33,731 bases of DNA. Source: Candidatus Woesearchaeota archaeon. GTDB lineage: Archaea; Nanobdellota; Nanobdellia; Pacearchaeales; GW2011-AR1. The notes beneath the pieces are model-generated. The model saw nothing but the letters and a program-made list of their open reading frames with translations. It made no database searches and was not told the DNA's origin. Positions 1,643-33,731 of the stretch are shown here, in pieces. Numbering within the stretch: position 1 is the first letter of the stretch; each line of letters opens with the position of its first letter. The position numbers and the translations under genes are program-made. The stretch lies in contig CAZWEB010000003.1 in the NCBI GenBank assembly GCA_964632115.1, forward strand, positions 1 through 33,731, written 5' to 3'.

Positions 1643-1651
1643 ATTTTAAAG

Positions 1652-13827: not shown

Positions 13828-13835
13828 ATTTATAA
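13828..13835 (-). promoter_or_regulatory. Candidate internal TATA box for the class B radical SAM gene starting at 13807
   Basis: The minus strand reads CCTTATAAATC. The box is centred 24.5 nt upstream of ATG 13807. Confidence 0.35.
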
Positions 13836-13847
13836 GGATTGTTAAGA

Positions 13848-14603: not shown

Positions 14604-14624
14604 TTTAATTCATCGCAAAAACAG

Positions 14625-14632
14625 TTTATAAA
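14625..14632 (-). promoter_or_regulatory. Candidate internal TATA box for the CDP-alcohol transferase gene
   Basis: TTTATAAA is centred 25.5 nt upstream of ATG 14603. It sits in the 40-nt gap after the preceding stop. Confidence 0.35.
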
Positions 14633-14643
14633 TTTAAGGATAT

Positions 14644-16846: not shown

Positions 16847-16848
16847 TT

Positions 16849-17955: not shown

Positions 17956-17966
17956 TATTGTACTAG

Positions 17967-17986
17967 ATTATAAAAAAGCTTAAAAA
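17967..17986. promoter_or_regulatory. A/T tract around an AAGCTT palindrome, a candidate shared or bidirectional TATA region for phnW (-) and ppd (+)
   Basis: The sequence is TTATAAAAAAGCTTAAAAAC. CTTAAAAA is centred 25.5 nt from ppd ATG 18008. The same tract read on the minus strand (TTTTTAAG) is centred 27.5 nt from phnW ATG 17955. The whole spacer is only 52 bp. Confidence 0.4.
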
Positions 17987-18007
17987 CATATTGGTGATAT
18001 AAAGCAT

Positions 18008-19123: not shown

Positions 19124-19139
19124 GGAGATTAAATAAAAA

Positions 19140-20621
19140 ATGAACCCCAAAAAATTCAAAAAAATTATGCTTGTAAATCCTGCAAATACCATGCCCAAGG
19201 ATAGTGTAAGAAGACTAACATCTCCATTGGGTTTAATGTATCTCGGGGCTGTTTTAAAACAAGACAATTATGATGTAAAAATTCTTGATTCTACTTGTGA
19301 GGGTTATTATAACACCCAGATTTCAGGAGAGCATATAACCTACGGGCTGTCAGATGATGAATTTAAAAAAAGAGTAAGAGAATATGAACCTGATCTTGTA
19401 GGGATAACCTCTATGTTTTCTGCTCAGCAGAAAAATTCAATACATCATTGTGATTTAGTAAAATCAGTTAATCCAGAAATTCCAATTGTTCTTGGAGGAA
19501 TACATCCTTCTATTTTAACAGAAGAATCTACAAAAAATTCTTCTGTTGATTTTGTAATCATCGGAGAAGGTGAATATAGAATTATAAAACTTCTAGACGC
19601 CCTAAACAAAAATCAAAAACCAGACTTTGATGGAATTGCTTATAAAAACAAGGACAAGATTATTCTAAATCCAATGATTTCAAGAATAGATAATTTAGAT
19701 TCATTGCCTTTGCCTGCCCGGGATTTAGTAGAGATGGAAAAATACATTCAAATAAGTGTTCCTTTTAGCCCGTTTCCAAGAAAAGAACGAGTTGAACAAA
19801 TTATGACAACAAGAGGTTGTCCGTTTAACTGCAATTTTTGTTCAACAGTCCAATACTGGGGGCATCATTTTAGAGCAAGATCTGTGGAAAACGTCTTAAA
19901 AGAGGTTGATGAATTAGTAAGCAAATACAAGATACAAGAGATACAATTTTCAGATGATAATCTAACTGTTAATAAAAAAAGAGCAAAAGATCTTTTTAGA
20001 AGACTCAAAGATTATAATCTCTCTTGGTGCACTCCAAATGGATTAATGGTTCAAACTCTTGATGAAGAAATGATAAAGTTAATGGCAGAATCAGGAGCAT
20101 ATCAATTCAGTTTTGCAATAGAATCTGGGAGTGATAGGGTTAGAGAAAAAATAATTAATAAAAAGGTTCCTCCAAAAAAAGACGTTAAAGAATTAGTTGA
20201 ATTGTGCCATGATTATAATATTCAGATCCATGGATTGTTTATAGTAGGATTTCCAGGAGAAAAGCGTCCAGAAATAGATGAAACATTGCAATATCCATTT
20301 GATGTTAATCTTGACAGTGCATCTTTTTTTATTGCAAATCCCATGCTGGGCTCAAGGCTTTATTTTGAATGCAAGGAAAAAGGATATATACATGAAGAAG
20401 AAATGACATGGAATGTTAAAAATGCTGAAATCAACATCCCTGCAGACTCTCCAGATTTTGTGATGCCTAATTCAGAACTAGAAGAATTAGTTAATCAAAA
20501 AGCAAGAGAATTTAATGAATATGCTAAAACTAAAAATCCGGGAGCATGGGATACTAAATTCAGCCAATTCCTCAAAAGGCATGGAGATAATGCAGATTTA
20601 ATCTTGGGAAGAGTGACCTAA
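19140..20621 (+). CDS. Cobalamin-binding (class B) radical SAM enzyme, Fom3-like (candidate phosphonate C-methyltransferase)
   Basis: Class B motifs are VLGGIHPS, IIGEGEYR and TRGCPFNCNFC. Other segments match my recollection of Fom3: KIMLVNPA, PLGLMYLGAVLKQDNYDVKILD, EGYYN, YGLSDDE, LMAESGAYQFSFAIESGS, SASFFIANP. An SD-like AGGAG lies at 19123-19127. Confidence 0.8.
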   Translation: MNPKKFKKIMLVNPANTMPKDSVRRLTSPLGLMYLGAVLKQDNYDVKILDSTCEGYYNTQISGEHITYGLSDDEFKKRVREYEPDLVGITSMFSAQQKNSIHHCDLVKSVNPEIPIVLGGIHPSILTEESTKNSSVDFVIIGEGEYRIIKLLDALNKNQKPDFDGIAYKNKDKIILNPMISRIDNLDSLPLPARDLVEMEKYIQISVPFSPFPRKERVEQIMTTRGCPFNCNFCSTVQYWGHHFRARSVENVLKEVDELVSKYKIQEIQFSDDNLTVNKKRAKDLFRRLKDYNLSWCTPNGLMVQTLDEEMIKLMAESGAYQFSFAIESGSDRVREKIINKKVPPKKDVKELVELCHDYNIQIHGLFIVGFPGEKRPEIDETLQYPFDVNLDSASFFIANPMLGSRLYFECKEKGYIHEEEMTWNVKNAEINIPADSPDFVMPNSELEELVNQKAREFNEYAKTKNPGAWDTKFSQFLKRHGDNADLILGRVT

Positions 20622-22348
20622 AGATTACCAAGAATATCCCTTACAAAGTTTAAGTCTTTTATATTGTGGATTTCCAGCCAGCCGCCGTTTGTTTCATGTA
20701 CTGCTACTTTGAAATCTCTGTTAACTAGTTCCTGAAACATATCTGTATCAACTGCTTTTCCAAAACTTTCTGCCCCGTGGAATTTCCCAGTATGATTTGA
20801 TTTTAAGTCTTCATATACTTTGATTAGATTTTCAGCACCTTGTTTTGAAAATTTTGCCAAGCCAATGAACTCATGAGTCATTAATTCTTTTGGGATGCTT
20901 CTGCCAATTAAAACAACTTCATCATTAGAAGGCCTTAATCTTTGATATTGGATTTGTTTTCCTTTTTTTGTTATAACTCCATCAAGTTTCTTATCTATCT
21001 CATGTTTATGATAAAGATAAGAATTATCAACAACAATTACAATATCTTCTTTTCTTTCAAGAAGCTCATTTATCAATCTTTTGTCCAAAAGAATATCTGA
21101 ATTAATATAAATAAATCCTTTTTTCATTTTTTCTTTAGCCTGCATAAGACTATGAATCATCCCCAAAGAAGAGTATTCTGGATTATCAAAATAATTAATA
21201 TCTGAAATATTAAATTTTTCTTTCTGCCACCCAATTATGGCATTGATATTATTCAATCCCAGGTCTTTGAATATCTGAATTTGATGTTCAAGTAATGTTC
21301 TCCCATTTATATTAATTAAAGCTCTTGGAATATTTCCCATTGCTTGTTTGAATTCCTCATTTTCTTCTCCAGCAGCAGGAATAATCACAGAAGGAGTTTT
21401 TGAAAGCAATTCATCTTTTTCTTTTATATCTAAGAAGCCAACTTTATTAAAAATTTCTTTTACAGAAATAATATGTGGCTCTGCTTCTAATGCTCTTTCA
21501 TTCTCAAGAATTATGCTTCCAACATTATGCATTGCTTTGTATGCTGCGCGCAGCATATGATTTGCATAGATTACAATATTAAATCCATGTTCTTCTAATT
21601 CAGACTCTCTTACTGAACTATATGTTGTTGGTACGCATACTAAAGGTTTTCTTATGCCTATCTCTTTGCATAATTGAGAATATTCTTTTGCAAATTTAAT
21701 CACTTCTTCAGGGCTAGTAGACTTTGAATGAATCATTATTCCATCTGCGCCACTTTCCAAGTATTTTCTTGCGCGCAGCAAGGCATCATTAATCTCTTTT
21801 CCTGCAATTAAACTTTCTATCCTTGCTATAATCATAAAATCATCAGATCTTTGTATTTTCTTTCCTGCTTCAATTTTTTCAGCAAAACGCTCTGGTTCTT
21901 CTAAATGCTGAATTGTTCCTGATTCAAGGCTATTTCTTTTTGGAAATACCTTATCTTCTATTATAACTGCAGAAACACCCATTCTTTCTAATTTTGGAAC
22001 TAAATATTCAAAATGATGTATGTCTCCTCCTGTATCACCATCAATAATCAATGGCTTGTTAGTAACTTCTAAAATTTCAGATACTGTTCTTAATCTAGAA
22101 TCAAACCCAATAATCTCTATATCTGGATGTCCTTTTGAAGCAGAATCAGTTAAACTGCTTTCCCAGAAAAAATCAAATTCATTGATTTTTTTAATTCCAT
22201 TGTTATCTATCTCTGCACTTAAATCATTTGCAATCAAGGCGCTTATTGCACTATGAACTTCTATTCCCCTTACCAGTTTTTTAATCTCCAACGCTCTTTT
22301 GAGTTTTTTTCGCCTCTCTTCAGGAGATATTAAATATCTCAATGTCAT
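20618..22348 (-). CDS. pepM: Phosphoenolpyruvate mutase fused to a C-terminal nucleotidyltransferase domain
   Basis: The N-terminal half has isocitrate-lyase/PEP-mutase superfamily motifs (DGDTGG) and the PepM-discriminating signature IIEDKVFPKRNS (EDKxxxxxNS). The C-terminal half has an NTP-transferase start (VIIPAAGE...PRALININGRTLLEHQI). ATG 22348 is preferred over TTG 22360 because a TATA-like box is centred 25.5 nt upstream of it. Confidence 0.75.
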   Translation of the reverse strand: MTLRYLISPEERRKKLKRALEIKKLVRGIEVHSAISALIANDLSAEIDNNGIKKINEFDFFWESSLTDSASKGHPDIEIIGFDSRLRTVSEILEVTNKPLIIDGDTGGDIHHFEYLVPKLERMGVSAVIIEDKVFPKRNSLESGTIQHLEEPERFAEKIEAGKKIQRSDDFMIIARIESLIAGKEINDALLRARKYLESGADGIMIHSKSTSPEEVIKFAKEYSQLCKEIGIRKPLVCVPTTYSSVRESELEEHGFNIVIYANHMLRAAYKAMHNVGSIILENERALEAEPHIISVKEIFNKVGFLDIKEKDELLSKTPSVIIPAAGEENEEFKQAMGNIPRALININGRTLLEHQIQIFKDLGLNNINAIIGWQKEKFNISDINYFDNPEYSSLGMIHSLMQAKEKMKKGFIYINSDILLDKRLINELLERKEDIVIVVDNSYLYHKHEIDKKLDGVITKKGKQIQYQRLRPSNDEVVLIGRSIPKELMTHEFIGLAKFSKQGAENLIKVYEDLKSNHTGKFHGAESFGKAVDTDMFQELVNRDFKVAVHETNGGWLEIHNIKDLNFVRDILGNL

Positions 22349-22369
22349 GAGTAAGAACAATATACCATA

Positions 22370-22488: not shown

Positions 22489-24003
22489 ATGAAGATAAAA
22501 TCCATGAAATCCTCTGATTTAAGAGATATAAGGAAAATTTCTAATGATAAAAGAAAAAAAGTTCTGCTGATTAATTGCAGAAGAAAAGGATATCTTCCAG
22601 CCCTGATGCCCCACATAGGACTTGGAATCTTGGCGGGAATTTTAATAAGAAGAGGGCACGAAGTCCTGGTTATTGATTATCTGCTTACTAATAATGTTCC
22701 CCCTATTGAAATGTTTTTAAAAAAATTTAATCCGGATGTAGTTGGAATTACTTCATATACTTGGAATATATTTGAAGTAAAAAAAACAATTGATGAGATA
22801 AGAAATTTTTCATCCTCTTTGCCAGTGATTATAGGCGGTCCACACACATCTATGTTTACAGATGATTTCAAACAAGACAAAAGAATTGATTATCTTGTTT
22901 TAGGAGATGGAGAACTGCTTATAATTGATTTGATTGAAAAAGCTAAAAGACAAAAAAAACCAGAAATACTATTCTCTAAAGAACTTGCAAAACTAGATGA
23001 TATTCCTTTTCCAAATTACCAGTGTTTTTACAAATGGGAAACAGTTCTTAGTTATCCCCTTTATACCTCCAGAGGGTGCCCACATAATTGCAATTATTGT
23101 TCTGTTTGGATCTTATGCAACAGGGTCTGGAGAACAAGAAGTTCTGAAAAATGCATAGAAGAACTTAGGCTTGCAAAAAAAATTTTCAAAAAAGACCTGC
23201 ATGTTTTTGTCGTAGATGACAGTCCGGCAATAGACAAAAAAAGATTTGCTGATTTTCTAAGATTATATATTAAAAGCAGATTAAGAATGAGACTCGAAGT
23301 CTATAATATGAGGGCTGATAATATTACAGAAGAAATACTCTCTTTGCTTAAAAAAACAGGCACTAAACATTTTACGGTGGCAGTAGAACACACAGATCCA
23401 GAAGTCTGTCAGTTGATGGACAAGCATGAAACTATTGAACAAATTGAAAATGCAATAAACCTGGTTAAAAAACAGGGATTTTTACTGACTCTTTTTTTTG
23501 TTATTGGTTTGCCAAAAGACAGTTTTGAAAAAACAAAAAAATTAATTAAATTTGCCAGAAAATTCAAGCCTTATGCTATCAATTGGAATATTTTTCAGTA
23601 TCTTGGCCCAAATAGGGCTGTAGAATGGTTCAAGGAGAATGGGAAAGTCGACGCAATTAATTACTCTCAGCCCTCTTTTAAAAAAGAAATTTTTTATCCA
23701 GAAGGAAAGCCTTTTGCAGAATATTCTGGCTTTACAAAACATGAGATAGAAAAAGCATATTTTATGGCAATCTTGAGGACAATATCTCCAAGTCTTAGGC
23801 TCAGAGATGCAGTAAGAATATTCAAAACAATCTCAAAATATAATCTCCAGGCAGATTTTTTTTATTGGCTTCCGAGAGGATTTTTAAAATCCCTAAGGAC
23901 CAAGTTTTATCTTTTTCAGTCTGCAGTAAATACTGTAAGAAAAGAAGGTATTATTAAAACTTTAAGAAAAATTATATACCTAAAGAAATTAGGAAGACTT
24001 TGA
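22489..24003 (+). CDS. Cobalamin-binding (class B) radical SAM enzyme
   Basis: Motifs seen: KVLLINCR, IIGGPHTS, VLGDGELL, SRGCPHNCNYC, VAVEHTD. Confidence 0.8.
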   Translation: MKIKSMKSSDLRDIRKISNDKRKKVLLINCRRKGYLPALMPHIGLGILAGILIRRGHEVLVIDYLLTNNVPPIEMFLKKFNPDVVGITSYTWNIFEVKKTIDEIRNFSSSLPVIIGGPHTSMFTDDFKQDKRIDYLVLGDGELLIIDLIEKAKRQKKPEILFSKELAKLDDIPFPNYQCFYKWETVLSYPLYTSRGCPHNCNYCSVWILCNRVWRTRSSEKCIEELRLAKKIFKKDLHVFVVDDSPAIDKKRFADFLRLYIKSRLRMRLEVYNMRADNITEEILSLLKKTGTKHFTVAVEHTDPEVCQLMDKHETIEQIENAINLVKKQGFLLTLFFVIGLPKDSFEKTKKLIKFARKFKPYAINWNIFQYLGPNRAVEWFKENGKVDAINYSQPSFKKEIFYPEGKPFAEYSGFTKHEIEKAYFMAILRTISPSLRLRDAVRIFKTISKYNLQADFFYWLPRGFLKSLRTKFYLFQSAVNTVRKEGIIKTLRKIIYLKKLGRL

Positions 24004-24005
24004 AG

Positions 24006-25148
24006 ATGAAAATAATTTTTACTCATTTAAAACCAGAGTTCTGGCAGTATAAAACAGCTTCTGTATTAAGAAAAAAAGGGGTTAAAACAATTTCCATATC
24101 TATTCTTGAATTTGACAAAGAAAAATACAAAAATGCTTTTGATGAAATAATCTCCCCAGAGCTGCCAAATCTTAAACCCGAAACATTATTAAAACAGTTT
24201 TTTAAAAATCCCCTAAAAATATTAAAATTTTTAATTAAGATATCTACAATAAAATCAGATGTTGCAATATGCCAGGGCGCTCCACACTATTTAACTGCTT
24301 TTTTCATCTGGCTTTTTAAAGGAAGATTTCCAAGAATATATTTCCCTTATGACATTAATTCTTCAAGATTTAGAAATCTTAAAGGTTATTTTCCCAAAAG
24401 AGAAATCTGGGGAGAAGAATCTTCTTTTAAAAACTGTGATGCAATCATAATTAAAAGTAAAAAACAAGAACTAGAACTTCTGCCAAAATATTTTAATACC
24501 AAAAACAAACCCCAACTAGAATTTCCATGCTATGTATCTTCTGAATGGAGTGTTCCTTATCAGCCAAAAAAATTATCTCGCAAAGACAAGCAAACCCATA
24601 TAGTATATACGGGAATTTTTATGGACGAGCCTGATTCATTTCATAAATCCATGCTTCCAGATTTTCAGGAAATTTTAAAGCAAAAAATACATTTCCACAT
24701 TTATTGCGCCTATAACAGCCTGAGTAAAGAACAATATTCTAAAATAACTAAAAATAATGAGAAATTAATGCCTTTTTTTCATGTTCATCAGTTTGTCTCA
24801 CCAGAAAAACTTTCTCAAGAAATTAGCAAATATGATTTTGGCTATTATTTTGTTGAATATAATGAAAATGCAGTTCCAGGTTCGGTAAAATTTGTAACAG
24901 GAAACAAGGTTTCTTCATATTTTGAGTCTGCAATTCCAGTAATAGTTTACAAAGGAAATTTAATCAACAGCAAAATGATTGAAGAGAACAATCTTGGCAT
25001 CTCTATTGAAAAGATGAAAAATCTGAAAGAAGGAATTAAAAAGTTTAACTATAATAAATCAATAAAATCTCTATTAGAATTTAGAAAAAAATATTCAGCA
25101 GATAATCATATAAATGAAATGATTGATTTTGTGAAATATTTAAACTAG
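24006..25148 (+). CDS. Hypothetical protein, weakly GT-B (GT4/GT1)-like
   Basis: The ORF is uninterrupted and about 380 aa. It begins 3 nt after the preceding radical SAM stop (the TTG 24000 alternative overlaps by 4 nt). Only loose GT-B-like landmarks are visible (HIVYTGIF, GNKVSSYFESAIPVIV). No catalytic motif was recognised. Confidence 0.35.
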   Translation: MKIIFTHLKPEFWQYKTASVLRKKGVKTISISILEFDKEKYKNAFDEIISPELPNLKPETLLKQFFKNPLKILKFLIKISTIKSDVAICQGAPHYLTAFFIWLFKGRFPRIYFPYDINSSRFRNLKGYFPKREIWGEESSFKNCDAIIIKSKKQELELLPKYFNTKNKPQLEFPCYVSSEWSVPYQPKKLSRKDKQTHIVYTGIFMDEPDSFHKSMLPDFQEILKQKIHFHIYCAYNSLSKEQYSKITKNNEKLMPFFHVHQFVSPEKLSQEISKYDFGYYFVEYNENAVPGSVKFVTGNKVSSYFESAIPVIVYKGNLINSKMIEENNLGISIEKMKNLKEGIKKFNYNKSIKSLLEFRKKYSADNHINEMIDFVKYLN

Positions 25149-25210: not shown

Positions 25211-26155
25211 ATGAAAGAAAGAGTGTTAATAATAAAAGCAGGCTATACTGAATTTCTTGAAGAAGAAAAAGATTCAAGACAAGTAAGTTTTGGTGATATC
25301 TTAAGAGTTACTCCTCTTTTGCATTTGTATAAAGATGATGATGTAACCTGGATGACAGATGAACAAGCTTTTCCATTACTAGAAGGAAATAAATATATTA
25401 GTCGGCTCATGAGATTTGACTGGATTAGTGCAGGACAATTAAAAAAAGAGAGATTCGACACTCTTATAAACTTGGAGAAAGTTCCAGGTGTCTGTGCAAT
25501 TGCAGATGATATTTATTCTGTGCGAAGATATGGATTTAGATTTGATCCTGAAGCAAGAAAAGCAAAAGCCTATGATAATGCTTTAGATGTTTTAACTGTC
25601 AGTTCTGATCCTAAAATTAAAAAACAAAATACTAAAACCGCCCAAGAACTTTTATTTGGGATGGTTGGAAAAAAATGGCGGGGGGAAGAATATATCTTAA
25701 GTTATCAACCAAAAACCAATGAAATATATGACATAGGGTTTAATACAATAGTTGGAAAAAAATGGCCTATTAAATCCTGGCCCGTTGAAAATTGGAATAA
25801 ATTAGAAAATATGCTTTCAGAAAAAAATTTAAAAATAAGCAGGCAAGAAAAACAATCAAAAGAAATATTAACTAATCTTGATAGTTACATGGATTGGTTA
25901 AATTCCTGCAACCAAATTGTTACTATCGATAGTTTGGGTTTGCATTTAGCATTGGCTTTAAAGAAAAAAGTAATTGGTTTGTTTGGTCCAACACCTTTTA
26001 AAGAGGTTTATTTTTATAACAGGGGAGAAGCAATTTTCCCTGAAAATTTTCCCTGCAAAGATTTGCCATGTTTTCAGAGAACATGTTCGCATGAGGTAAC
26101 TTGTATGGGTGCAATAACACCCGAGAAAGTTTATGAAAAAATTATTAAACAATAG
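25211..26155 (+). CDS. Family 9 glycosyltransferase (heptosyltransferase-like)
   Basis: The N-terminal segment is RVLIIKAG...GDILRVTPLL. The C-terminal segment IVTIDSLGLHLALALKKKVIGLFGPT matches the GT9 pattern xxDSGxxHLAAAxxxPxxxLFGPT. Confidence 0.65.
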   Translation: MKERVLIIKAGYTEFLEEEKDSRQVSFGDILRVTPLLHLYKDDDVTWMTDEQAFPLLEGNKYISRLMRFDWISAGQLKKERFDTLINLEKVPGVCAIADDIYSVRRYGFRFDPEARKAKAYDNALDVLTVSSDPKIKKQNTKTAQELLFGMVGKKWRGEEYILSYQPKTNEIYDIGFNTIVGKKWPIKSWPVENWNKLENMLSEKNLKISRQEKQSKEILTNLDSYMDWLNSCNQIVTIDSLGLHLALALKKKVIGLFGPTPFKEVYFYNRGEAIFPENFPCKDLPCFQRTCSHEVTCMGAITPEKVYEKIIKQ

Positions 26156-26173
26156 TAACACACTACAACAATC

Positions 26174-26181
26174 TTTATAAA
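26174..26181 (+). promoter_or_regulatory. Candidate archaeal TATA box for radical SAM paralogue A
   Basis: The sequence AATCTTTATAAAT is nearly the same 13-mer as the one upstream of the GT9 gene. The box is centred 25.5 nt upstream of ATG 26203. Confidence 0.45.
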
Positions 26182-26202
26182 TTTAAAATATTTTTTTAAA
26201 AA

Positions 26203-27366
26203 ATGGATAAATCTGAAAAAGATAAAATTTCTGTATTACCTACTGGAGACCAAAGATACAGGTTTAACTCTACAAAACTGCCCTGGCACATGGAAAGAGT
26301 AAGAAAAAGATTTGACAAAGGCGAACGAGTAGCACCAATACATATGGATGTTGGAATAACAAAAGCTTGCAATATCGAATGTGTTTTTTGTTTGGGATTT
26401 TATCAAAACATGACTGGAGAAATAATGCCTTATGATGCTACTGTAAATCTATTAAGAGATGCTCCTCAACTTGGAGTCAAATCAATGGGTATTATTGGAG
26501 ATGGTGAGCCCACATTAAATCCTGCTCTTTATGAAGCTATTAAATCTGGAAAAAAAGGAGGATTAGATATTGGGATAGCAACTAATGGTGTAGCTCTTAA
26601 TGAAAGTAAAATAGAAACTCTTGTAAAAAATTGTGTCTGGATAAGATTTAATTTGGGGGCAGTTGAAAGAGGGGCTTATAAAAGAGTTCACGGAAGAGAC
26701 TTTTGGCCAAGAGTTAAAGAAAATATTGAAAAAACTATCTCTACAAATGAAAAAGCAGAAAGACCATGCACCATTGGTTTGCAGATGGTTACAACTCCTC
26801 TAAGTCAAGATCAAATTATTCCTGAAGCAAAATGGGCAGTTGACATAGGCGCAGATTATTTTGAAATCAAACAAATGACTCAAGTTGATGATGCTCGCAT
26901 GATAAGTTTTCCTTTGGATTGGTATAAAAAACAAGATGTAATAGATGCCCTTAAGGAAGCAGAATCTCTCTCAACAGAAAGAACAATAATCATGCCTAAG
27001 TGGACAATGATGCAGTCAGGGGGAAAAAGAAATTATAATCATTGTCTGGATGTTTCACTTTTAATGCAAGTAAGTGGTAATGGGGAGTGCTATCCTTGCG
27101 CATACTTGTTTAATCATCCAGAATATCTGTATGGAGATTTAAAAAAACAATCTCTCGGAGAAATCTTAGAGGGCGATAGATACTGGAGAATTATAGAACA
27201 GATGGAAAAAAATTTTGATGTACATCAAGATTGTGAAGGATGTTGCAGACATGATAGAAATAATGAATTTCTTTATTATTATGTTCATGAAAAAGAGAGA
27301 TTCAAAGAATTCTGGAGATTAAATGTACAAGGTAAACCAACTCCAAGACATTTAAATTTTATTTAA
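26203..27366 (+). CDS. Radical SAM enzyme with C-terminal Cys-rich (SPASM/twitch-like) domain, paralogue A
   Basis: Motifs seen: GITKACNIECVFC (CxxxCxxC) and IGDGEPTLNP. The C-terminal cysteines are CLDV...YPC...DCEGCC. The protein aligns end to end with the 28328 and 30607 products, including the N-terminal KLxWHxxRV and the C-terminal HLNFI. Confidence 0.8.
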   Translation: MDKSEKDKISVLPTGDQRYRFNSTKLPWHMERVRKRFDKGERVAPIHMDVGITKACNIECVFCLGFYQNMTGEIMPYDATVNLLRDAPQLGVKSMGIIGDGEPTLNPALYEAIKSGKKGGLDIGIATNGVALNESKIETLVKNCVWIRFNLGAVERGAYKRVHGRDFWPRVKENIEKTISTNEKAERPCTIGLQMVTTPLSQDQIIPEAKWAVDIGADYFEIKQMTQVDDARMISFPLDWYKKQDVIDALKEAESLSTERTIIMPKWTMMQSGGKRNYNHCLDVSLLMQVSGNGECYPCAYLFNHPEYLYGDLKKQSLGEILEGDRYWRIIEQMEKNFDVHQDCEGCCRHDRNNEFLYYYVHEKERFKEFWRLNVQGKPTPRHLNFI

Positions 27367-27378
27367 TTAGTAATCTGA

Positions 27379-28254
27379 ATGGTAAAAAATATGCTGAAAG
27401 AAAAAATTTTAATTTTAGGATCTAAAGGACTATTAGGAACTGCAATAGAAAAAGTTTGTGAAGAAAGAACAGAAGAATATCTTGGACTTTCGCATAAAGA
27501 TTTGGATATTTCTGATAAAAGCCAATTAGAAAAGAAAATAGATGAATACTCTCCTAGAATAATAATAAATTCTGCTGCAATGATGGGAATCTCTCCATGC
27601 GAAGAAAACCCTCAAAAAGCCTTTGAAATTAATACTGTTTCTGCATTAAATCTTACAAAAATCTGCCAGAAGAGAAGTATCGCTCTTGTCCAGATCAGTA
27701 GTAACTCAATATTTGACGGAAAAAAAGGGGAACTATACTTTGAAGATGATGTTCCAAATCCTCAAAATATCTATGGGCTTTCAAAATATGCAGGAGAGAT
27801 ATGTGTCCAAAATAATTTATCCTCACATTATATAATCCGACTTTCAAAACTATTTGGCTCAAGAAGAAACAAAACTCCTGGTTTTGTAGATAAAATGATA
27901 GATTTAATGAAAGAAGGAAGAGAACTAAAAATTGCTGAGGATAGAATTGACACTTTTACATATTCTATGCATGCTGCAAGAAAAATATTATCCTTGCTTG
28001 AAAGTCATGTTCCTTTTGGGATTTATCATGTAGCAAATAAAGGTAGCACTAGTTATTATGATTTTGTATGCAGATTTGCAGAAAAAATTAGATATACCGG
28101 AAAAATTACAAGAGCAAAAGATAGGGATTTTCCTGCTTCTGCGCCGAATCCATTAAGGGTTGAATTAGGTTCAGAAAAGATTAGCAATATGCCTTCATGG
28201 GAAGAAGCCTTGGAGGAGTATGTTTCTGAAGAAAGAGAAAAACTAGGCTTTTAA
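27379..28254 (+). CDS. NAD(P)-dependent sugar reductase, dTDP-4-dehydrorhamnose reductase (RmlD)-like
   Basis: Motifs seen: ILILGSKGLLG (GxxGxxG) and the SDR catalytic YGLSKYAGE (YxxxK). The length of about 290 aa and the layout are RmlD-like. Confidence 0.7.
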   Translation: MVKNMLKEKILILGSKGLLGTAIEKVCEERTEEYLGLSHKDLDISDKSQLEKKIDEYSPRIIINSAAMMGISPCEENPQKAFEINTVSALNLTKICQKRSIALVQISSNSIFDGKKGELYFEDDVPNPQNIYGLSKYAGEICVQNNLSSHYIIRLSKLFGSRRNKTPGFVDKMIDLMKEGRELKIAEDRIDTFTYSMHAARKILSLLESHVPFGIYHVANKGSTSYYDFVCRFAEKIRYTGKITRAKDRDFPASAPNPLRVELGSEKISNMPSWEEALEEYVSEEREKLGF

Positions 28255-28327
28255 AACTATTATATTTTGGAGACTAATAATACTTTTAAATGAAAATTAC
28301 ATTAGCTAAATGCACAAATAAATAAAA

Positions 28328-29404
28328 ATGGCAGATAAATATTTAATGGATAGTCATAAACTTTTATGGCATCTAAAAAGAGTTAATGATTGGTTAGATT
28401 GTAAAAGAATTGTTCCTATTCATATTGATGTAGGTCTTGCCAAAGGATGCAATATAAAATGTCATTATTGTTTTGGTGTTCTTCAGGGAAACGAATATCT
28501 CAAGGGAAAGAGTAATTATTTTCCAAGAGAAGCGCTTTTAAATTATCTTAAATCTGCAGGGAAAATGGGTGTAAAATCAATGGGTTTTATTGGGGAGGGA
28601 GAACCCACATTAAATCCCGCACTTAATGAAGCAATTATTCAAGGTTCCAAATCAGGCATCGATATTGCGCTGGCGACTAATGGGATTTTATTTAATCCTT
28701 CAAAAGAAGTTCTGGAAAATTTAAAATGGATAAGATATAACATAAGCGCTGCATCTGATAATTCATATCGCAATCTTCATGGAAGTAAAGAGTTTAATAA
28801 AGCGATAAATAGCATAACGCAAAGTGTAGAGATAAAGAAAAAACATAATTTAGAAGTAACTGTTGGTCTCCAGATGGTTTTAACTCCAAAAGATGTTGAT
28901 GAAGCAGTTCCATTGGCAAAACTTGGAAAACAATTCGGGGTAGATTATCTCGTGATAAAACAATGTAGTGATACTTTAGAGAGCAAATTGGGAGTATATG
29001 ATAAACTGGAAGAAAACAGAAGAAAATATAACAAGGTTCTAAAAGAAGCAGAATCCATTAGCTCAGAAAATTATGATGTTATTGTTAAATGGAATAAAAT
29101 TACAGATACTAAGCAAGATTATGGGCGCTGTCTCGGAGTGCCTTTTCTTTTATATTCAAGTGGAGATGGAAAATTATTTCCATGCGGTATGTTTTTTAAT
29201 GAAGAATACTGGGATGCTTTTCTCATGGGGGATTTAACTAAACAATCATTTGGAGAAATAATCAAAAGCAAAAGATATTGGGAAGTTGTAAAAAGAGTTG
29301 AGAATATGGGTACTGCAAAATGTTATACAGGATGCAGAACAAATGCTATTAATTCTTTTTTGTGGAAATTAAAACATAAACCAAAGCATGTGAATTTTAT
29401 ATAA
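28328..29404 (+). CDS. Radical SAM enzyme with C-terminal Cys-rich (SPASM/twitch-like) domain, paralogue B
   Basis: Motifs seen: GLAKGCNIKCHYC, IGEGEPTLNP, C-terminal CLGV...FPC...KCYTGC, tail HVNFI. The stop TAA overlaps the next gene's ATG (TAATG at 29402-29406). Confidence 0.8.
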   Translation: MADKYLMDSHKLLWHLKRVNDWLDCKRIVPIHIDVGLAKGCNIKCHYCFGVLQGNEYLKGKSNYFPREALLNYLKSAGKMGVKSMGFIGEGEPTLNPALNEAIIQGSKSGIDIALATNGILFNPSKEVLENLKWIRYNISAASDNSYRNLHGSKEFNKAINSITQSVEIKKKHNLEVTVGLQMVLTPKDVDEAVPLAKLGKQFGVDYLVIKQCSDTLESKLGVYDKLEENRRKYNKVLKEAESISSENYDVIVKWNKITDTKQDYGRCLGVPFLLYSSGDGKLFPCGMFFNEEYWDAFLMGDLTKQSFGEIIKSKRYWEVVKRVENMGTAKCYTGCRTNAINSFLWKLKHKPKHVNFI

Positions 29405-30132
29405 TGGAAAAATTAGAATCAAAAGCAAAAAAACTTAGAAAAGAGACCATAGATTTTTCAATAAAAGAAGGAGATCCACATCTAGGTGCATGTTTTTCAG
29501 AAATAGAAATATTAATTTCACTATATGATTCTGTTTTAACTTCTAAAGATAAATTTATATTAAGTAAGGGACACGCCTGTCATCCACTTTATATTCTCTT
29601 AAGAGAAAAAGGATATAATCCTAAAATATCAGGGCATCCTGATATTGATGAACCAAATGGAATTTATTGCACAACAGGTAGTTTGGGACATGGTCTTCCA
29701 ATAGGTGTTGGAATGGCTTTTGCAAGAAAAATAAAGCATAAAAATGGGAGAATATACGTGCTAATGGGTGATGGAGAATGTGAAGAGGGGACAACATGGG
29801 AATCTGCTTTAATTGCTTCAAAATATAATCTTGATAATCTTAGAGTTATTGTTGACAACAATAAATTACAGGCACTTGAGAAACTTGTGTTGCCTCTTGA
29901 TAATCTAAAAGAGAAATTTAAAGTTTTTGGATGGGATGTTGATGAGATAGACGGGCATGATTTTAGTAAGATAATTCCTTCTTTGGAAAAAGAATCTTAT
30001 GAGGGTCCTAGGGTAATCATTGCTCATACAATTAAGGGAAAAGGATTAAGCTATATGGAAAATGATCCAAAATGGCATACAAGACCCCTAACACCTGAAG
30101 AATTAGAACAAGCATATGGGGAATTAAAATGA
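29404..30132 (+). CDS. Transketolase-family ThDP enzyme, N-terminal (PP-domain) subunit
   Basis: Motifs seen: SKGHACHPLY and TGSLGHGLPIGVGMA. The ThDP motif is GDGECEEG...(27 aa)...NN. Confidence 0.8.
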   Translation: MEKLESKAKKLRKETIDFSIKEGDPHLGACFSEIEILISLYDSVLTSKDKFILSKGHACHPLYILLREKGYNPKISGHPDIDEPNGIYCTTGSLGHGLPIGVGMAFARKIKHKNGRIYVLMGDGECEEGTTWESALIASKYNLDNLRVIVDNNKLQALEKLVLPLDNLKEKFKVFGWDVDEIDGHDFSKIIPSLEKESYEGPRVIIAHTIKGKGLSYMENDPKWHTRPLTPEELEQAYGELK

Positions 30133-30605
30133 GAAGAGAATTTGGAAAATTAATTGTTGAACTTGCTGAAAAGGACAAGAACATAATGTTAATTGTAGGA
30201 GATTATGGGTATGGGATGCTTGATGAATATAGAAGAAGATTTCCTAGTAGATTTTTTAATATAGGGGTATGTGAACAGAGCATGATTGGTTTGGCATCTG
30301 GGATGGCTTTAGAAGGATTTAAACCCTATGTTTATACAATAACTCCCTTCCTCATAGAGAGGCCTTTTGAACAAATTAAGTTAGATATTGACCAACAAAA
30401 TGTTAATGTAAAACTGATTGGATATGCAGATTATCCTACGCACGGACCAACACATGCCGAATTAGATGCAAAAGGACTAATGAGTTTATTAAAAAATATT
30501 AAAAGTTATTTTCCTAAAAATTCAGAAGAAACTAGAAGGTTTTTATTAGAATCCTATAAATCTGAGTGTCCCACGTTTATCAGCTTAAAAAAGACTCTTT
30601 TATAA
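30129..30605 (+). CDS. Transketolase-family ThDP enzyme, pyrimidine-binding (Pyr) subunit, lacking the usual C-terminal domain
   Basis: Motifs seen: FPSRFFNIGVCEQSMIGLASGMALEG (conserved Glu of the EQ motif) and THGPTHAELDAKGL. The protein ends after 158 aa, at the boundary of the Pyr domain. An ATGA overlap joins it to the upstream subunit. Confidence 0.75.
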   Translation: MRREFGKLIVELAEKDKNIMLIVGDYGYGMLDEYRRRFPSRFFNIGVCEQSMIGLASGMALEGFKPYVYTITPFLIERPFEQIKLDIDQQNVNVKLIGYADYPTHGPTHAELDAKGLMSLLKNIKSYFPKNSEETRRFLLESYKSECPTFISLKKTLL

Positions 30606-30606
30606 A

Positions 30607-31659
30607 ATGAACTTAGAAGTAGACAATCACAAATTAATGTATCACCCTAAAAGAGTTTCTGAATATCTTGAAAAAGGAGATTGTTTTCCAGTTTATATTG
30701 AAATTGGTCCAACAAACAGATGCAATCACAGATGTGCTTTTTGTGCACTTGATTTCCTAGAGCATGGGGGATATGATATTGACCGGGATGTTTTATTAAA
30801 AAATTTAAAAGATATGGCTGAACACGGTGTAAAATCAATAATGTTTGCAGGAGAAGGAGAACCCCTTTTGCATAAAAATATTGCTGAATTTATAAGATAC
30901 TCAAAAAACCAAGGAGTAGATCTATCAATAACTACAAATGGAGTTTTGTTTAATCGTGAAAAAGCAGAAGAAATACTTCAATTTCTATCATGGATAAGGT
31001 TTAGTGTAGATGCTGCAAATAAAAAGACATATGCAAAAATACATGGAACTAAAGAAAGAGATTTTGATAAAGTCATAGAAAATATAAATTATTCCTCACA
31101 ATTAAAAAAACAAAAAAATCTTCAAACAACTATTGGAGTTCAATGTTTAGCTCTTTCAGAAAATATAGAAGAAATAGAAAAATTAGCAGCAATTTGTAAG
31201 AAAATAGGCGCAGATAATCTGCAAGTTAAACCTTATTCCCATCACCCGCTAAGTAAAAACGATTTTTCAGTTTCTTCAGCCAGACTTTCTGAACTGGAAA
31301 ATTCTCTTAAAAAATTTGAAGACGAGAATTTTAAAATATTTTATAGAAAACAAACAATAGAAAGAATTTCTCAGGGAATTAACTATCCTGAATGTTATGG
31401 TCTGCCTTTTTTTGCTTTAATTGATTCAAAAGGAGATGTGATCCCATGCAATCTCTTTTACAATAATCCAGGGTTTACATACGGAAATTTGAATGAAAAA
31501 AAATTTAGTGAAATTTGGACAAGCAACAGAAGAAAACAAGTTATTAAAAAAATAAAAAGAAAAGGAATTTCTGAATGCAGAAGAGGATGCAGGCTAGATG
31601 TAATTAACAGGTACTTGCAAAGGATTAAAAATCCAGATTTACATGATAATTTTATATGA
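30607..31659 (+). CDS. Radical SAM enzyme with C-terminal Cys-rich (SPASM/twitch-like) domain, paralogue C
   Basis: Motifs seen: GPTNRCNHRCAFC, AGEGEPLLH, C-terminal CYGL...IPC...ECRRGC, tail HDNFI. It starts 1 nt after the transketolase stop. Confidence 0.8.
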   Translation: MNLEVDNHKLMYHPKRVSEYLEKGDCFPVYIEIGPTNRCNHRCAFCALDFLEHGGYDIDRDVLLKNLKDMAEHGVKSIMFAGEGEPLLHKNIAEFIRYSKNQGVDLSITTNGVLFNREKAEEILQFLSWIRFSVDAANKKTYAKIHGTKERDFDKVIENINYSSQLKKQKNLQTTIGVQCLALSENIEEIEKLAAICKKIGADNLQVKPYSHHPLSKNDFSVSSARLSELENSLKKFEDENFKIFYRKQTIERISQGINYPECYGLPFFALIDSKGDVIPCNLFYNNPGFTYGNLNEKKFSEIWTSNRRKQVIKKIKRKGISECRRGCRLDVINRYLQRIKNPDLHDNFI

Positions 31660-32072
31660 GCCTAAAAAATAAAAGAGCAGTCAAGGTTTTTTTGATTAAT
31701 TCAAAAAAGGAAATTTTATTGCAGCTAAGAGATAACAAGCCAGGTATATATTACCCCGGATATTGGGGTCTTTTAGGAGGAGCAGTTGAAAATAATGAAT
31801 CTGAATTAGCTGCAGCAAAAAGAGAAATAAAAGAAGAAATTAATTTAGAGATTAAGAATTTAATATTTATAGGGATAACTAAATCTTTAGGAAGAAATAA
31901 GAATAGTGATGTTTATTTTTTTAAATCAAAAATAAATATTCCCTTAAATAAGATTAAATTAAATGAAGGGCAAAAAGTTGAATTTTTTAAGCTAAAGGAC
32001 ATATTGAAATTAAGAACTCCAAATTTTTTAAAAAAGTTTATCTGTGCAAACCAAGATAAAATTCTGAGTTAA
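31656..32072 (+). CDS. Nudix hydrolase
   Basis: The Nudix box is GAVENNESELAAAKREIKEEINL, matching Gx5Ex7REUxEExGU with the last Gly replaced by Asn. An ATGA overlap joins it to the upstream radical SAM gene. Confidence 0.75.
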   Translation: MSLKNKRAVKVFLINSKKEILLQLRDNKPGIYYPGYWGLLGGAVENNESELAAAKREIKEEINLEIKNLIFIGITKSLGRNKNSDVYFFKSKINIPLNKIKLNEGQKVEFFKLKDILKLRTPNFLKKFICANQDKILS

Positions 32073-32108
32073 TCTCTATTTGAAATATATTTTCTTTTGC
32101 CATAATGG

Positions 32109-32116
32109 TTTTAAAC
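32109..32116 (+). promoter_or_regulatory. Candidate archaeal TATA box for the radical SAM gene at 32137
   Basis: The sequence is GGTTTTAAACC. The box is centred 24.5 nt upstream of the ATG. Confidence 0.4.
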
Positions 32117-32136
32117 CTATTTTTAATCTATAAGAT

Positions 32137-33030
32137 ATGGGTGATCAAAAAAAGGTAGTCATTCCAGATACTTACAAGTATATTTCAGCATTTCTTACGA
32201 TGAGATGCAATCTTAATTGTAGTTTTTGTCTTAATTCTCTTGATAAAAACAAGGAGTTTAATAGAAAGAAATTCAGAGAGATATCTGGAAAACAATGGGT
32301 AGAAGCATTAAATAGGGTCCAACCGAGACGAGATATTCCTGTTACTTTAAGCGGTGGAGAACCATTTTTACATAGAGATTTTATTTATATCCTTAATAAT
32401 TTAAAACCAGAACTAAATATAGATATTCTCACAAATTTATCCTATGAAAAAGGCTTGGAAGAATTCATTAAAAGTGTAAAACCAGAAAGAGTGAAAAGAG
32501 ATTCTCCATATGCTTCTATTCGAGTTTCTTACCATCCAGAACAAATGGGGGATGGAAAAAGACTAGTTGAAAATGTAAAAAGATTTAAAGATTCTGGATT
32601 CAGCATTGGAATATGGTCTGTTTTATTCCCAAGCCCACAGCAGCTTTCTGCAATTAATCAAATGCAATTTAGGTGCAGAGATTCTGGAATTGATTTTCGG
32701 CTGAAGGAATTTACAGGAGAATATAAAGGAGAACTATATGGAGATTACTCTAAATATAAGAATTCTGTTTTGCAGGAAAAAACAGAAGAATGCTTATGCA
32801 AAACTTCTGAATTGCTTATAGCACCTAATGGAAATATATATAGGTGCCATAGAGATTTATATGAAGGAGAAAATTCAGTTGGAAGTCTGCTTAGTCCTGA
32901 ATTTGAAATAGAGAATATCTTCAGGCAATGCAATAAATATGGGCAGTGCCATCCCTGTGATGTAAAAGTAAAAACAAACTACAAGCAGCAGTTCGGGCAC
33001 ACCAGCGTGGAAATAAAGAAAATTGAATGA
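32137..33030 (+). CDS. Radical SAM enzyme (small, with C-terminal Cys cluster)
   Basis: Motifs seen: LTMRCNLNCSFC (CxxxCxxC) and LSGGEPFLH. The C-terminal cysteines are ECLC...RCH...QCNKYGQCHPC. Confidence 0.75.
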   Translation: MGDQKKVVIPDTYKYISAFLTMRCNLNCSFCLNSLDKNKEFNRKKFREISGKQWVEALNRVQPRRDIPVTLSGGEPFLHRDFIYILNNLKPELNIDILTNLSYEKGLEEFIKSVKPERVKRDSPYASIRVSYHPEQMGDGKRLVENVKRFKDSGFSIGIWSVLFPSPQQLSAINQMQFRCRDSGIDFRLKEFTGEYKGELYGDYSKYKNSVLQEKTEECLCKTSELLIAPNGNIYRCHRDLYEGENSVGSLLSPEFEIENIFRQCNKYGQCHPCDVKVKTNYKQQFGHTSVEIKKIE

Positions 33031-33152: not shown

Positions 33153-33190
33153 GCAAGAAATCCGCATAGTTTAGTGTGCGGATGAATTGC
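33153..33190. repeat. Bulged hairpin: GCAA-gaa-ATCCGCA / TGCGGAT-gaa-TTGC
   Basis: A 7-bp stem pairs 33160-33166 with 33177-33183 around a 10-nt loop. An outer 4-bp stem pairs 33153-33156 with 33187-33190 across a 3-nt internal mismatch. Confidence 0.6.
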
Positions 33191-33318: not shown

Positions 33319-33731
33319 ATGGAAACACAAAATCTAGCAAATGAATATGAACACTATAGCCATTCAGTTGGAACATTAATGCTTCATCTTGAATGGGTAA
33401 CTAAATACAGATATAAAATGTTTAGAAAAGAAGAGCAGAAAAACCTTGTTACTGCCTGCATCAGAAGAGCTGCAAGTCTGCATGAAATTAAAATTATTGA
33501 AATTCAAGTAATGCCCGAGCATGTTCATGTAGCTGTTCAAGTTGCATTAACTTTATCTCCTGCAAAAGTCTTGCAGATTTTAAAAGGAATTAGTGCAAGA
33601 CTTTTCTTTATGAAAAATCCAAAGGCAAGATTAAGATTGCCCAAAGGAAATTTATGGAGTAAAGGAAAATTCGCAGCTTCTCTTGGTTTTATTCAAGTTG
33701 GTGCTGCGAGAGAATATATAAAGAAACAAGC
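33319..33731 (+). CDS. tnpA: IS200/IS605-family Y1 (HUH) transposase TnpA, 3' end cut by window edge
   Basis: I translated this by hand. The product is METQNLANEYEHYSHSVGTLMLHLEWVTKYRYKMF...MPEHVHVAVQ (HUH motif) ...LWSKGKFAASLGFIQVGAAREYIKKQ, with the catalytic-Tyr helix YIxxQ. An SD-like GGAG lies at 33310-33313. Confidence 0.85.
   Translation, partial: METQNLANEYEHYSHSVGTLMLHLEWVTKYRYKMFRKEEQKNLVTACIRRAASLHEIKIIEIQVMPEHVHVAVQVALTLSPAKVLQILKGISARLFFMKNPKARLRLPKGNLWSKGKFAASLGFIQVGAAREYIKKQ

Follow-up and report, generated by a model that had tools for sequence, protein, structure and literature searches.

A radical SAM gene module shared by archaea, bacteria and viruses, and its possible role in tailoring an activated heptose-type sugar

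What could an archaeon make with three full-length paralogues of the same radical S-adenosylmethionine (rSAM) enzyme, interleaved with a reductase, the two halves of a transketolase and a Nudix hydrolase? The question comes from a stretch of 33,731 nucleotides (the window: contig CAZWEB010000003.1 of assembly GCA_964632115.1, Candidatus Woesearchaeota archaeon, G+C about 30%), in which nine genes of the forward strand, spanning positions 25211 to 33030, form a cassette (Table 1). Besides the paralogues, which we name A, B and C in the order of their genes, they encode an RmlD-like ketoreductase, the PP-domain and Pyr-domain subunits of a transketolase-like (TK-like) enzyme (TK_N and TK_pyr), the Nudix protein, a further rSAM named D and a family 9 glycosyltransferase (GT9). 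An interpretation made from the letters alone, here the sequence-only reading, had seen in most of these genes a line for remodelling nucleotide sugars. We propose that the cassette is one version of a widespread module that tailors a nucleotide-activated sugar of the heptose type for a surface glycan, and we give this proposal an even chance of being right; the substrate, the order of the steps and the chemistry of each enzyme are matters that we infer from what follows.

The answer begins with rSAM B, which is conserved more strongly than any other member of the family. An alignment-query scan produced 80 metagenomic loci anchored on B orthologues, onto which homologues of the cassette genes were mapped; a scan of a genome collection, which used a single protein as the query, returned six loci. 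Partners were counted in the 43 B-anchored loci that have adequate flanks, within 10 kb in the case of the HldE-like and GmhA-like genes. An RmlD-like gene is present in 42 of these loci, the TK-like PP subunit in 38, its Pyr subunit in 37 and a C-type rSAM in 23, followed by HldE-like (21), Nudix (20) and GmhA-like genes (17); GT9 genes were met in six loci, D-type rSAMs, adjoining C and GT9, in five, GmhB in two and a transaldolase in one. Where at least 1 kb of upstream sequence was at hand, the RmlD-like gene stood directly upstream of B in 45 loci out of 68. Both counts show that the conserved partner of the reductase is B, not A, with which the sequence-only reading had paired it. The core that is conserved across phyla is made of the RmlD-like reductase, B, the TK-like pair and C.

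The usual order in bacteria is HldE-like, GmhA-like, C, Nudix (not always), TK_N, TK_pyr, RmlD-like, B, and in most bacterial loci C adjoins the GmhA-like gene and the TK-like genes. A Nudix gene is found also in L004 and L009, and it lies between C and TK_N in L008. The order of the core genes is met again in Hydrothermarchaeota, Thermodesulfovibrionales, Planctomycetota, Omnitrophota, Acetivibrio and one archaeal relative, while orthologues of B that are 52–79% identical belong to Elusimicrobiota, Thermodesulfovibrionales, anammox Planctomycetota, Omnitrophota, Hydrothermarchaeota and Acetivibrio cellulolyticus. The contig of the closest relative, L004, bears genes for archaeal ribosomal protein and for subunits of RNA polymerase; identity there is 77% for B, 68% for the reductase, 63–66% for the TK-like subunits, 59% for C and 52% for D. 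The closest named orthologues of C come from Pacearchaeota and Nanoarchaeota. These relatives make a DPANN-type archaeon the likeliest source of the window. As for the company that the module keeps, genes for sugar nucleotides and for glycosyltransferases adjoin it in dozens of loci. Together with DesII as the best fold match of B and with a match to the twitch region of BtrN, this agrees with the view, already put forward from the sequence alone, that the enzymes work on glycan precursors, and speaks against maturases of peptides or cofactors.

What kind of radical enzyme is common to these loci? Each of A to D exceeds the gathering score of PF04055, and A, B and C also match the SPASM family PF13186, at 22.8–40.6 bits for a cutoff of 21.5. 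A search with a profile of A, B and C brings up, at E ≤ 1e-30, the representatives of 1,175 clusters made at 50% identity, and the homologues are named at source either with generic radical SAM labels or with automatic calls (MoaA, GTP 3′,8-cyclase, PqqE). Conserved columns were counted over 113 homologues from other loci, all of them nearly full-length. The invariant cysteine columns there are exactly seven: the three of the CX3CX2C motif, and four near the C-terminus that correspond to C268, C286, C332 and C336 of B, so that the C-terminal cysteines singled out in the sequence-only reading do hold across the family. Near the N-terminus, K11 is kept in 111 and H15 in 109 of the homologues; in the C-terminal tail, H-x-N-F-[I/V], the histidine is kept in all 113, the asparagine and phenylalanine in 110–111. 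A full SPASM domain would display a C-terminal motif of seven cysteines and two auxiliary clusters. Four cysteines fit a single cluster, which makes the domain twitch-like, and the profile match to the twitch region of BtrN goes the same way. Judged by these motifs, the family is twitch-like, with one predicted auxiliary [4Fe-4S] cluster; of the label 'SPASM/twitch-type' that had been given to it, the second half stands and the first does not.

No NCBIfam model reaches its cutoff for rSAMs A, B, C or D (best scores 80, 72, 118 and 37 bits, for cutoffs between 180 and 650), and the enzymes do not fall, by that measure, into a family already characterised in some unrelated role. The models that score below cutoff include maturases, MoaA, DesII, BlsE and viperin. 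The AlphaFold2 model of B (predicted local distance difference test, pLDDT, 85) has DesII as its best match in the PDB, then SkfB, SuiB, anSME, BlsE and viperins; PDB searches by sequence and by fold gave superfamily-level matches only. Searches of NCBIfam, of the PDB and of the full-text literature returned no characterised member, solved structure or paper for the rSAM family or for the module. In two homologues from other contigs (P0161 and P0368) the rSAM is interrupted, not far from its N-terminus, by an intein that includes a homing endonuclease domain of the LAGLIDADG type.

The three enzymes of the window are indeed related from end to end, as had been claimed: identity is 38% between A and B (E 3e-87), 33% between B and C (E 2e-70) and 28% between A and C (E 7e-46), all over the full length. 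This is true paralogy, far above chance. The motifs listed in the sequence-only reading (K-L-x-W/Y-H-x-x-R-V, CX3CX2C, the four C-terminal cysteines and the H-x-N-F-I tail) are all present, and they are conserved in the 113 homologues from other loci. The positions of the open reading frames (ORFs) were likewise given exactly, with junctions of −1 nt (TAATG) between B and TK_N, −4 (ATGA) between TK_N and TK_pyr, +1 between TK_pyr and C and −4 (ATGA) between C and the Nudix gene. Less can be made of a patch said to be nearly identical between the A and B genes. The patch is real, but 58 of its 69 nucleotides are the same (84%), above a peptide that is 87% identical. Identity at third codon positions is only 61% in the patch, compared with 43% over the genes as a whole, and amino-acid conservation (it encodes the GEPTLNP loop) in an AT-rich genome is enough to explain it; we have therefore rejected recent gene conversion as its source.

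The second singular component is the transketolase-like enzyme. Its residues were studied in about 55 module copies aligned to Escherichia coli TktA, from which the numbering is taken. Of the PP subunit, H26, H100, H261, D155, G156, N185 and E160 are conserved in 52 homologues out of 52, and H66 in 51, the last one having a glutamine; the Pyr subunit retains E411, H473 and R358. The cofactor and donor-side motif of transketolases (GDG..N, Glu, His) is thus in place, whereas the acceptor residues and the three-domain layout are missing. True transketolases bind the phosphate and the C2-hydroxyl of the acceptor with S385, H461, D469 and R520. The Pyr subunit of the window carries the substitutions S385G, H461A, D469H, R520K and F434I; among the module homologues, position 385 is G, K, I or V and never serine, 461 is G or A, 469 is Q, L, M, A, G, S or H, 434 is I, and 520 is K, T or Q, with lysine in 49 of about 55. 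His461 and Asp469 are found only in the outlier L060, which is an ordinary transketolase. Among solved structures, both subunits are closest to the split transketolase of Carboxydothermus hydrogenoformans (6yak, the closest for the PP subunit, and 6yaj; E 4e-45 and 7e-19), which shares the division into a PP and a Pyr gene; its 6yaj chain, of 341 residues, retains the canonical acceptor His, Asp, His and Arg and a C-terminal domain, whereas the Pyr subunit of the window, with 158 residues, carries the substitutions just listed and has no such domain. The latter subunit gives no match to PF02780 (Transketolase_C). This short form occurs also in L004, L012–L014, L051, L052, L054, L061 and L064, and most bacterial Pyr copies retain the domain. 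To speak of a split transketolase was therefore right as regards the two subunits, but it overlooked a short Pyr subunit without Transketolase_C and with a non-canonical acceptor pocket. With the acceptor side lost and the donor side intact, the subfamily probably handles a non-canonical acceptor.

Natural fusions bring the thiamine enzyme and the radical enzyme still closer. A short TK_pyr is fused in frame to a C-type rSAM in P0434, and an ALS-type thiamine enzyme to an rSAM of the family in P0124, while E1-type thiamine enzymes stand in for the TK-like pair in L008, in L094 and in many viral loci. The sequence-only reading had this transketolase transferring a C2 unit to remodel a sugar; the lost acceptor residues and the fusions lend support to some such non-standard role, though a simpler one, the supply of sedoheptulose-7-phosphate, has to be weighed against it.

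How does heptose enter the picture? The link, absent from the scheme first drawn for these genes, is made by genes for an HldE-like kinase/nucleotidyltransferase, a GmhA-like isomerase and the phosphatase GmhB, which belong to the biosynthesis of nucleoside diphosphate (NDP) heptose, and by GT9. Three operons, L007 to L009, open with a protein made of CTP_transf_like and PfkB domains, the best NCBIfam matches of which are the two RfaE/HldE domains, and continue with a GmhA-like SIS protein. In the HldE-like protein of L007 the nucleotidyltransferase domain comes first, the reverse of the order in HldE, and its scores do not reach the equivalog cutoffs; GmhA is the best match of the SIS protein, again below cutoff. 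The same operon ends with a HAD protein that is GmhB (187.5 bits, cutoff 178), and L007 also has a true FSA/TalC-type transaldolase (311.8 bits, cutoff 245.95). Members of the rSAM family are also fused to CTP_transf_like (P0123, P0173, P0264) and to SIS_2 (P0189) domains. GT9 is the family of heptosyltransferases. Homologues of the enzyme of the window, 42–55% identical to it, lie inside the module in L012, L022, L032, L048, L061, L072 and L075; the enzyme itself satisfies the gathering score of PF01075 and remains below the equivalog cutoffs of lipopolysaccharide heptosyltransferases I and II. Its gene lies outside the limits that the sequence-only reading had set; it belongs to the cassette, and its product is the probable transferase for whatever the cassette makes. 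Upstream of it comes a gene for a protein of 382 residues that has no Pfam match and has a homologue, 32% identical, upstream of the module in L004 (7400–8623); the cassette may thus have in it one more member that has escaped recognition. That enzymes of NDP-heptose biosynthesis occur in archaea and in viruses has been reported (PMC11461863).

The reductase and the Nudix protein have the hallmarks of their families. The former displays, in translation, a Rossmann motif GxxGxxG (GSKGLLG) and a catalytic YxxxK (YGLSK), and with 214.6 bits it is narrowly below the equivalog cutoff of TIGR01214, 224.05. An RmlD of the classical pathway would have its partners, RmlA, RmlB and RmlC, nearby; no 4,6-dehydratase or RmlC epimerase is found among the 29 ORFs of the window that were scanned, ORFs nested in larger ones being excluded. 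The Nudix box reads GAVENNESELAAAKREIKEEINL, and the replacement of its final glycine by asparagine is its only departure from GX5EX7REUXEEXGU.

How might these parts work together? The 5′-deoxyadenosyl radical made by rSAMs B and C (A being an extra paralogue, with D besides) would abstract a hydrogen atom from a C–H bond of the sugar. A secondary alcohol or a diol would then become a keto or aldehyde sugar with the help of the single auxiliary [4Fe-4S] cluster, through a two-electron oxidation in the manner of BtrN or through radical dehydration. In BtrN and in anSME, auxiliary clusters serve the two-electron oxidation of an alcohol. The carbonyl sugar would be the acceptor of a two-carbon unit delivered by the TK-like enzyme, while the keto intermediate would be reduced by the RmlD-like enzyme that so constantly accompanies B, with a net epimerisation or deoxygenation. 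The Nudix hydrolase would trim or edit the nucleotide handle, and GT9 would transfer the finished sugar. One may go further, and ask whether the product is a sugar that has yet to be described. A carbonyl made by an rSAM on a precursor of the NDP-heptose type (or on a ketose phosphate) and a glycolaldehyde unit, brought together in a complex of the TK-like enzyme and the rSAM (as the natural fusions suggest), would give a C9 sugar or a C2-branched heptose, which the RmlD-like enzyme would reduce and GT9 would transfer. This we regard as possible, and rather doubtful. Were it true, archaea, many anaerobic bacteria and viruses would have in common one toolkit for making such sugars.

Several observations weigh against the proposal that the module tailors an activated heptose. 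No member of the rSAM family, of the TK-like subfamily or of the module is characterised, and the functions discussed here are read from sequence. The fold matches of B are generic for the SPASM/twitch superfamily, with template modelling (TM) scores of 0.55–0.69. HldE, GmhA, GmhB and transaldolase gave no tblastn match in the window, which leaves the heptose link for this organism to GT9 and to orthology with other loci. Even there, the HldE-like and GmhA-like genes are present within 10 kb in only about half of the cases, and their scores below the equivalog cutoffs mean that the substrate could be another ketose phosphate. Finally, the TK-like enzyme may be nothing but a divergent supplier of sedoheptulose-7-phosphate, and this leads to the alternative that survives best.

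According to it, the pathway is that of a plain NDP-heptose. The TK-like enzyme, with transaldolase where there is one, would only supply sedoheptulose-7-phosphate, from which GmhA, HldE and GmhB would make NDP-heptose; the rSAMs and the RmlD-like reductase would epimerise or deoxygenate the latter, and no two-carbon unit would be transferred. L007 speaks for this, as it joins TK-like, HldE-like, GmhA-like, GmhB and transaldolase genes; so do the retention of all cofactor and donor-side catalytic residues and the fact that, of the relatives with a solved structure, the nearest is a split transketolase that functions as such. Small genomes such as those of DPANN archaea, moreover, often have no full pentose-phosphate pathway. 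We nevertheless find this account fairly unlikely. Virtually every copy of the module has other residues at the four acceptor positions (S385, H461, D469 and R520), while the characterised split enzyme retains them. The TK-like pair is a steadier partner of B than are HldE-like, GmhA-like, GmhB and transaldolase genes, as the counts given above make plain. E1-type and ALS-type enzymes, which are unable to make sedoheptulose-7-phosphate, replace the TK-like enzyme or are fused to an rSAM, and the fusion of TK_pyr with rSAM C also counts against this account.

The scheme first drawn for these genes fares worse. It made A and the RmlD-like reductase a deoxygenation pair similar to AprD4/AprD3, and set B, the transketolase, C and the Nudix hydrolase apart as a separate nucleotide-sugar line. 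An rSAM working with a ketoreductase is a known deoxygenation logic, that of AprD4/AprD3; the two genes are adjacent in the window, with a gap of 12 nt, and the order A, RmlD-like, B is preserved in a close relative, L095. Across phyla, however, the reductase is tied to B, and reductase and B without any A-type gene are the rule (L004, L007, L009 and L002). A-type genes, for their part, are mostly without an RmlD-like neighbour elsewhere; their company is made up of D-type rSAMs, of thiamine enzymes and of a gene similar to those for cytidylyltransferases. We regard the scheme as improbable.

To what, then, do A and D belong? A represents a separate clade of orthologues, being 45–66% identical to these and about 40% identical to orthologues of B. 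In a Patescibacteria genome (L094) the A orthologue shares its locus with one HldE-like gene, with genes for two E1-type thiamine enzymes and with one for a short-chain dehydrogenase/reductase (SDR). As for D, which had been described as unrelated to the others, alignment of profiles with hhalign gives a probability of 97% to the A/B/C family, of which it is a recurrent neighbour elsewhere; it is, at the level of sequence profiles, a distant relative of that family. A survey of 78 viral loci from IMG/VR (L098–L175), obtained by an alignment-based scan, found A-type genes in 43 and D-type genes adjoining in 41, with TK-like genes in 23, E1-type thiamine enzymes in 29, a small cytidylyltransferase-like gene in 22 and an RmlD-like gene in 7. 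These cassettes also hold glycosyltransferases (examples are L101, 7187–10800; L108, 5461–10356; L119, 4953–8014). That of L108 adjoins a large terminase gene and that of L119 genes for a DNA polymerase, a primase and a helicase, and at least some of the IMG/VR contigs that carry the cassette are real viruses. A-type enzymes co-occur with D-type rSAMs and a thiamine enzyme, real viral genomes included. Among GenBank phages a single weak match was found, at 23% identity, and 'radical SAM cassettes' are mentioned in the host-recognition clusters of pelagimyophages (PMC7029224).

Two further observations concern relatives of A. An A-type rSAM, P0310, is found on 44 contigs of about 35–49 kb (L096/L097, 10001–11077), amid many short ORFs without Pfam matches and one weak AAA ATPase match; these contigs may be a virus or another mobile element, and a single-protein scan of IMG/VR with P0310 found no relative. 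A second type of sub-module (L008, 11089–15230; L094, 3093–9990) places an extra rSAM of the family beside E1 alpha/beta-type thiamine enzymes, separate in the former locus and fused in the latter, with a 4,6-dehydratase-like SDR. Its arrangement resembles that of AviB1/AviB2-type two-carbon branching.

Another alternative starts from the nucleotidyltransferases. The module would make an activated ketose or alditol phosphate, in the manner of teichoic acids or of CDP-glucitol: the TK-like enzyme would build an unusual ketose phosphate, a CTP_transf_like protein would activate the phosphate, the RmlD-like enzyme would reduce the ketose to an alditol, and the rSAMs would deoxygenate or epimerise it. 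CDP-6-D-glucitol biosynthesis in Campylobacter jejuni follows a logic of this kind. A stand-alone CTP_transf_like gene occurs in L004, L012, L014 and 22 of the 78 viral loci, often without kinase or isomerase, and GmhB is nearly always absent. Against these arguments, GT9 enzymes are sugar (heptosyl) transferases and not phosphotransferases; the nucleotidyltransferase domain scores 95.6 bits with heptose-1-phosphate adenylyltransferase and 37.8 with glycerol-3-phosphate cytidylyltransferase; and about half of the loci do possess genes for a PfkB kinase and a GmhA-like protein. We see little chance for it. Finally, that the rSAMs are maturases of a metallocofactor or of a peptide made by ribosomes and modified after translation (RiPP), which merely happen to lie in a glycan island, is most improbable: the top-scoring NCBIfam models are indeed those of a tungsten cofactor rSAM maturase, of PqqE and of sactipeptide or ranthipeptide maturases, with SkfB, SuiB and anSME among the fold matches, but the scores are far under cutoff (72–118 bits instead of 380, for example), the four conserved C-terminal cysteines differ from the set with which a SPASM domain binds two clusters, neither a RiPP recognition element nor a precursor is called among the neighbours (no dedicated search was made) and it is with enzymes of sugar nucleotides that the family is conserved as a neighbour and fused.

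The cassette is not alone in its window, which counts ten radical SAM genes in 33.7 kb (Table 1). Six of them encode B12-binding rSAMs, interleaved with genes for glycans and for phosphonates. The latter form a cassette of the 2-aminoethylphosphonate type on both strands. A possible service of the rSAM cassette to the phosphonate genes was considered and rejected: no phosphoenolpyruvate (PEP) mutase was seen among the annotated neighbours in L002, L004, L005, L007, L008, L094 and L095 (the search was not systematic), and the two cassettes are accordingly treated as separate. Among the glycan genes is one for a protein similar to flavin amine oxidases and UDP-galactopyranose mutases, which may be an enzyme of sugar ring contraction or oxidation. 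SecD, followed in both cases by a small ORF, flanks the glycan genes of the window and of L004 (15930–17928, 59% identical), which suggests an island at a conserved chromosomal position with different contents. At the other end, the 5′ part of an IS200/IS605-type TnpA gene, as read from its sequence (HUH motif EHVHVAV), runs off the contig, with a hairpin-forming inverted repeat by its side.

Table 1. Features of the window, with the rSAM cassette first (positions counted from the first nucleotide of the window)
Feature	Position	Strand	Domain match or setting
GT9-family (heptosyltransferase-type) glycosyltransferase	25211–26155	+	PF01075 3.2e-14, 53.3 bits (cutoff 22)
rSAM A, twitch-type	26203–27366	+	Radical_SAM and SPASM (PF13186)
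RmlD-like NAD(P)H-dependent SDR ketoreductase	27379–28254	+	PF04321 (RmlD_sub_bind) 9.7e-65 over 276 residues
rSAM B, most conserved family member	28328–29404	+	Radical_SAM and SPASM (PF13186)
Transketolase-like PP-domain subunit (TK_N)	29404–30132	+	PF00456 (Transketolase_N) 1.5e-28
Transketolase-like Pyr-domain subunit (TK_pyr), 158 aa	30129–30605	+	PF02779 (Transket_pyr) 2.7e-18
rSAM C, second conserved orthologue group	30607–31659	+	Radical_SAM and SPASM (PF13186)
Nudix hydrolase	31656–32072	+	PF00293 (NUDIX) 2.9e-16, 60.1 bits
rSAM D, shorter, Cys-rich C-terminus	32137–33030	+	PF04055 (Radical_SAM) 4.9e-10
382-aa protein	24000–25148	+	
Phosphonate cassette, whole	12371–22360	both	
PEP mutase fused to nucleotidyltransferase domain	20618–22360	−	phosphonate cassette
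Phosphonopyruvate-decarboxylase-like thiamine pyrophosphate enzyme	18008–19123	+	phosphonate cassette
Class-V aminotransferase	16849–17955	−	phosphonate cassette
NTP transferase	16121–16852	−	phosphonate cassette
CDP-alcohol phosphatidyltransferase	13848–14603	−	phosphonate cassette
B12-binding rSAM	6355–7770		
B12-binding rSAM	9326–10696		
B12-binding rSAM	12371–13861	−	
B12-binding rSAM	14644–16131	−	
B12-binding rSAM	19140–20621		
B12-binding rSAM	22489–24003		
Flavin amine-oxidase / UDP-galactopyranose-mutase-like protein	7956–9308	+	among glycan genes
SecD	80–2080		
Inverted repeat, hairpin-forming	~33160–33190		by the TnpA gene
IS200/IS605-type TnpA, 5′ part	33320–33731	+	runs off contig end

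Why should this matter? The rSAM family has many members, found in DPANN and other archaea, in at least seven bacterial phyla and in real viruses, and all of them carry only generic names. That it is so regularly joined by an RmlD-like reductase, by an atypical transketolase and by genes for NDP-heptose offers a defined and testable entry point, and the module could lead to new radical chemistry of carbohydrates and show the transketolase fold put to a new use. Recognition between phage and host is determined by surface glycans. Were the product of the module known, glycan loci would be easier to read in uncultured archaea, in anammox bacteria, in Campylobacter fetus and in marine viruses, and NDP-heptoses are agonists of innate immunity (PMC11461863).

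It remains to place the module among systems that are understood. BtrN, the 2-deoxy-scyllo-inosamine dehydrogenase of butirosin biosynthesis and the founding twitch rSAM, has a CX3CX2C core and a short one-cluster C-terminal domain, as does the family, the profile of which matches its residues 161–223 (E 2e-10); both work, or appear to work, in carbohydrate contexts. The likeness of the cores does not rise above the superfamily level (BtrN ranks 43rd in the Foldseek search with B), and to our knowledge BtrN has neither the K-L-x-W-H-x-x-R-V motif nor the C-terminal H-x-N-F-[IV] of the family. DesII, the dTDP-4-amino-4,6-dideoxyglucose deaminase/dehydrogenase (PDB 8hzv and 8hzy), is the top structural match of B (E 7e-14, TM 0.63–0.69) and acts on a nucleotide sugar, but it is only 13–14% identical to B, the NCBIfam model of DesII gives about 30 bits for a cutoff of 450, and DesII has, as far as we know, no four-cysteine auxiliary cluster domain of the sort that defines the family. 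With AprD4/AprD3, responsible for the C3′ deoxygenation of apramycin, the pair formed by B and the RmlD-like enzyme would share its logic alone: there, an rSAM makes a keto-deoxy sugar that a dedicated SDR reduces, and the substrate is an aminoglycoside pseudodisaccharide, not a nucleotide sugar. Neither AprD4 nor AprD3 came up in the searches of NCBIfam and of the PDB.

On the side of the thiamine enzymes, YerE/YerF, and AviB1/B2 (Pau11/Pau12) with Pau7, combine a thiamine enzyme with a ketoreductase to make sugars with two-carbon branches (PMC4753412). In the loci of the family, enzymes of the E1, ALS and TK types share one place, like the thiamine partner of those systems; there, however, the keto acceptor is provided by NAD-dependent 4,6-dehydratases, and no radical SAM enzyme is known to be involved. 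That the commonest thiamine enzyme of our loci is TK-like suggests a glycolaldehyde donor instead of an acetyl donor. The ADP-heptose pathway, at last, has in GmhA, HldE, GmhB and GT9 the enzymes whose counterparts flank the module in many loci, GT9 alone being present in the window; the domains of HldE are in reverse order in the HldE-like protein of the module, and GmhB is rare in the loci. We know of no radical SAM or transketolase-like step in that pathway as it is described. The module would thus combine three known kinds of system: the tailoring of sugars by radical SAM enzymes, the branching of sugars by thiamine-dependent enzymes, and the making of NDP-heptoses.

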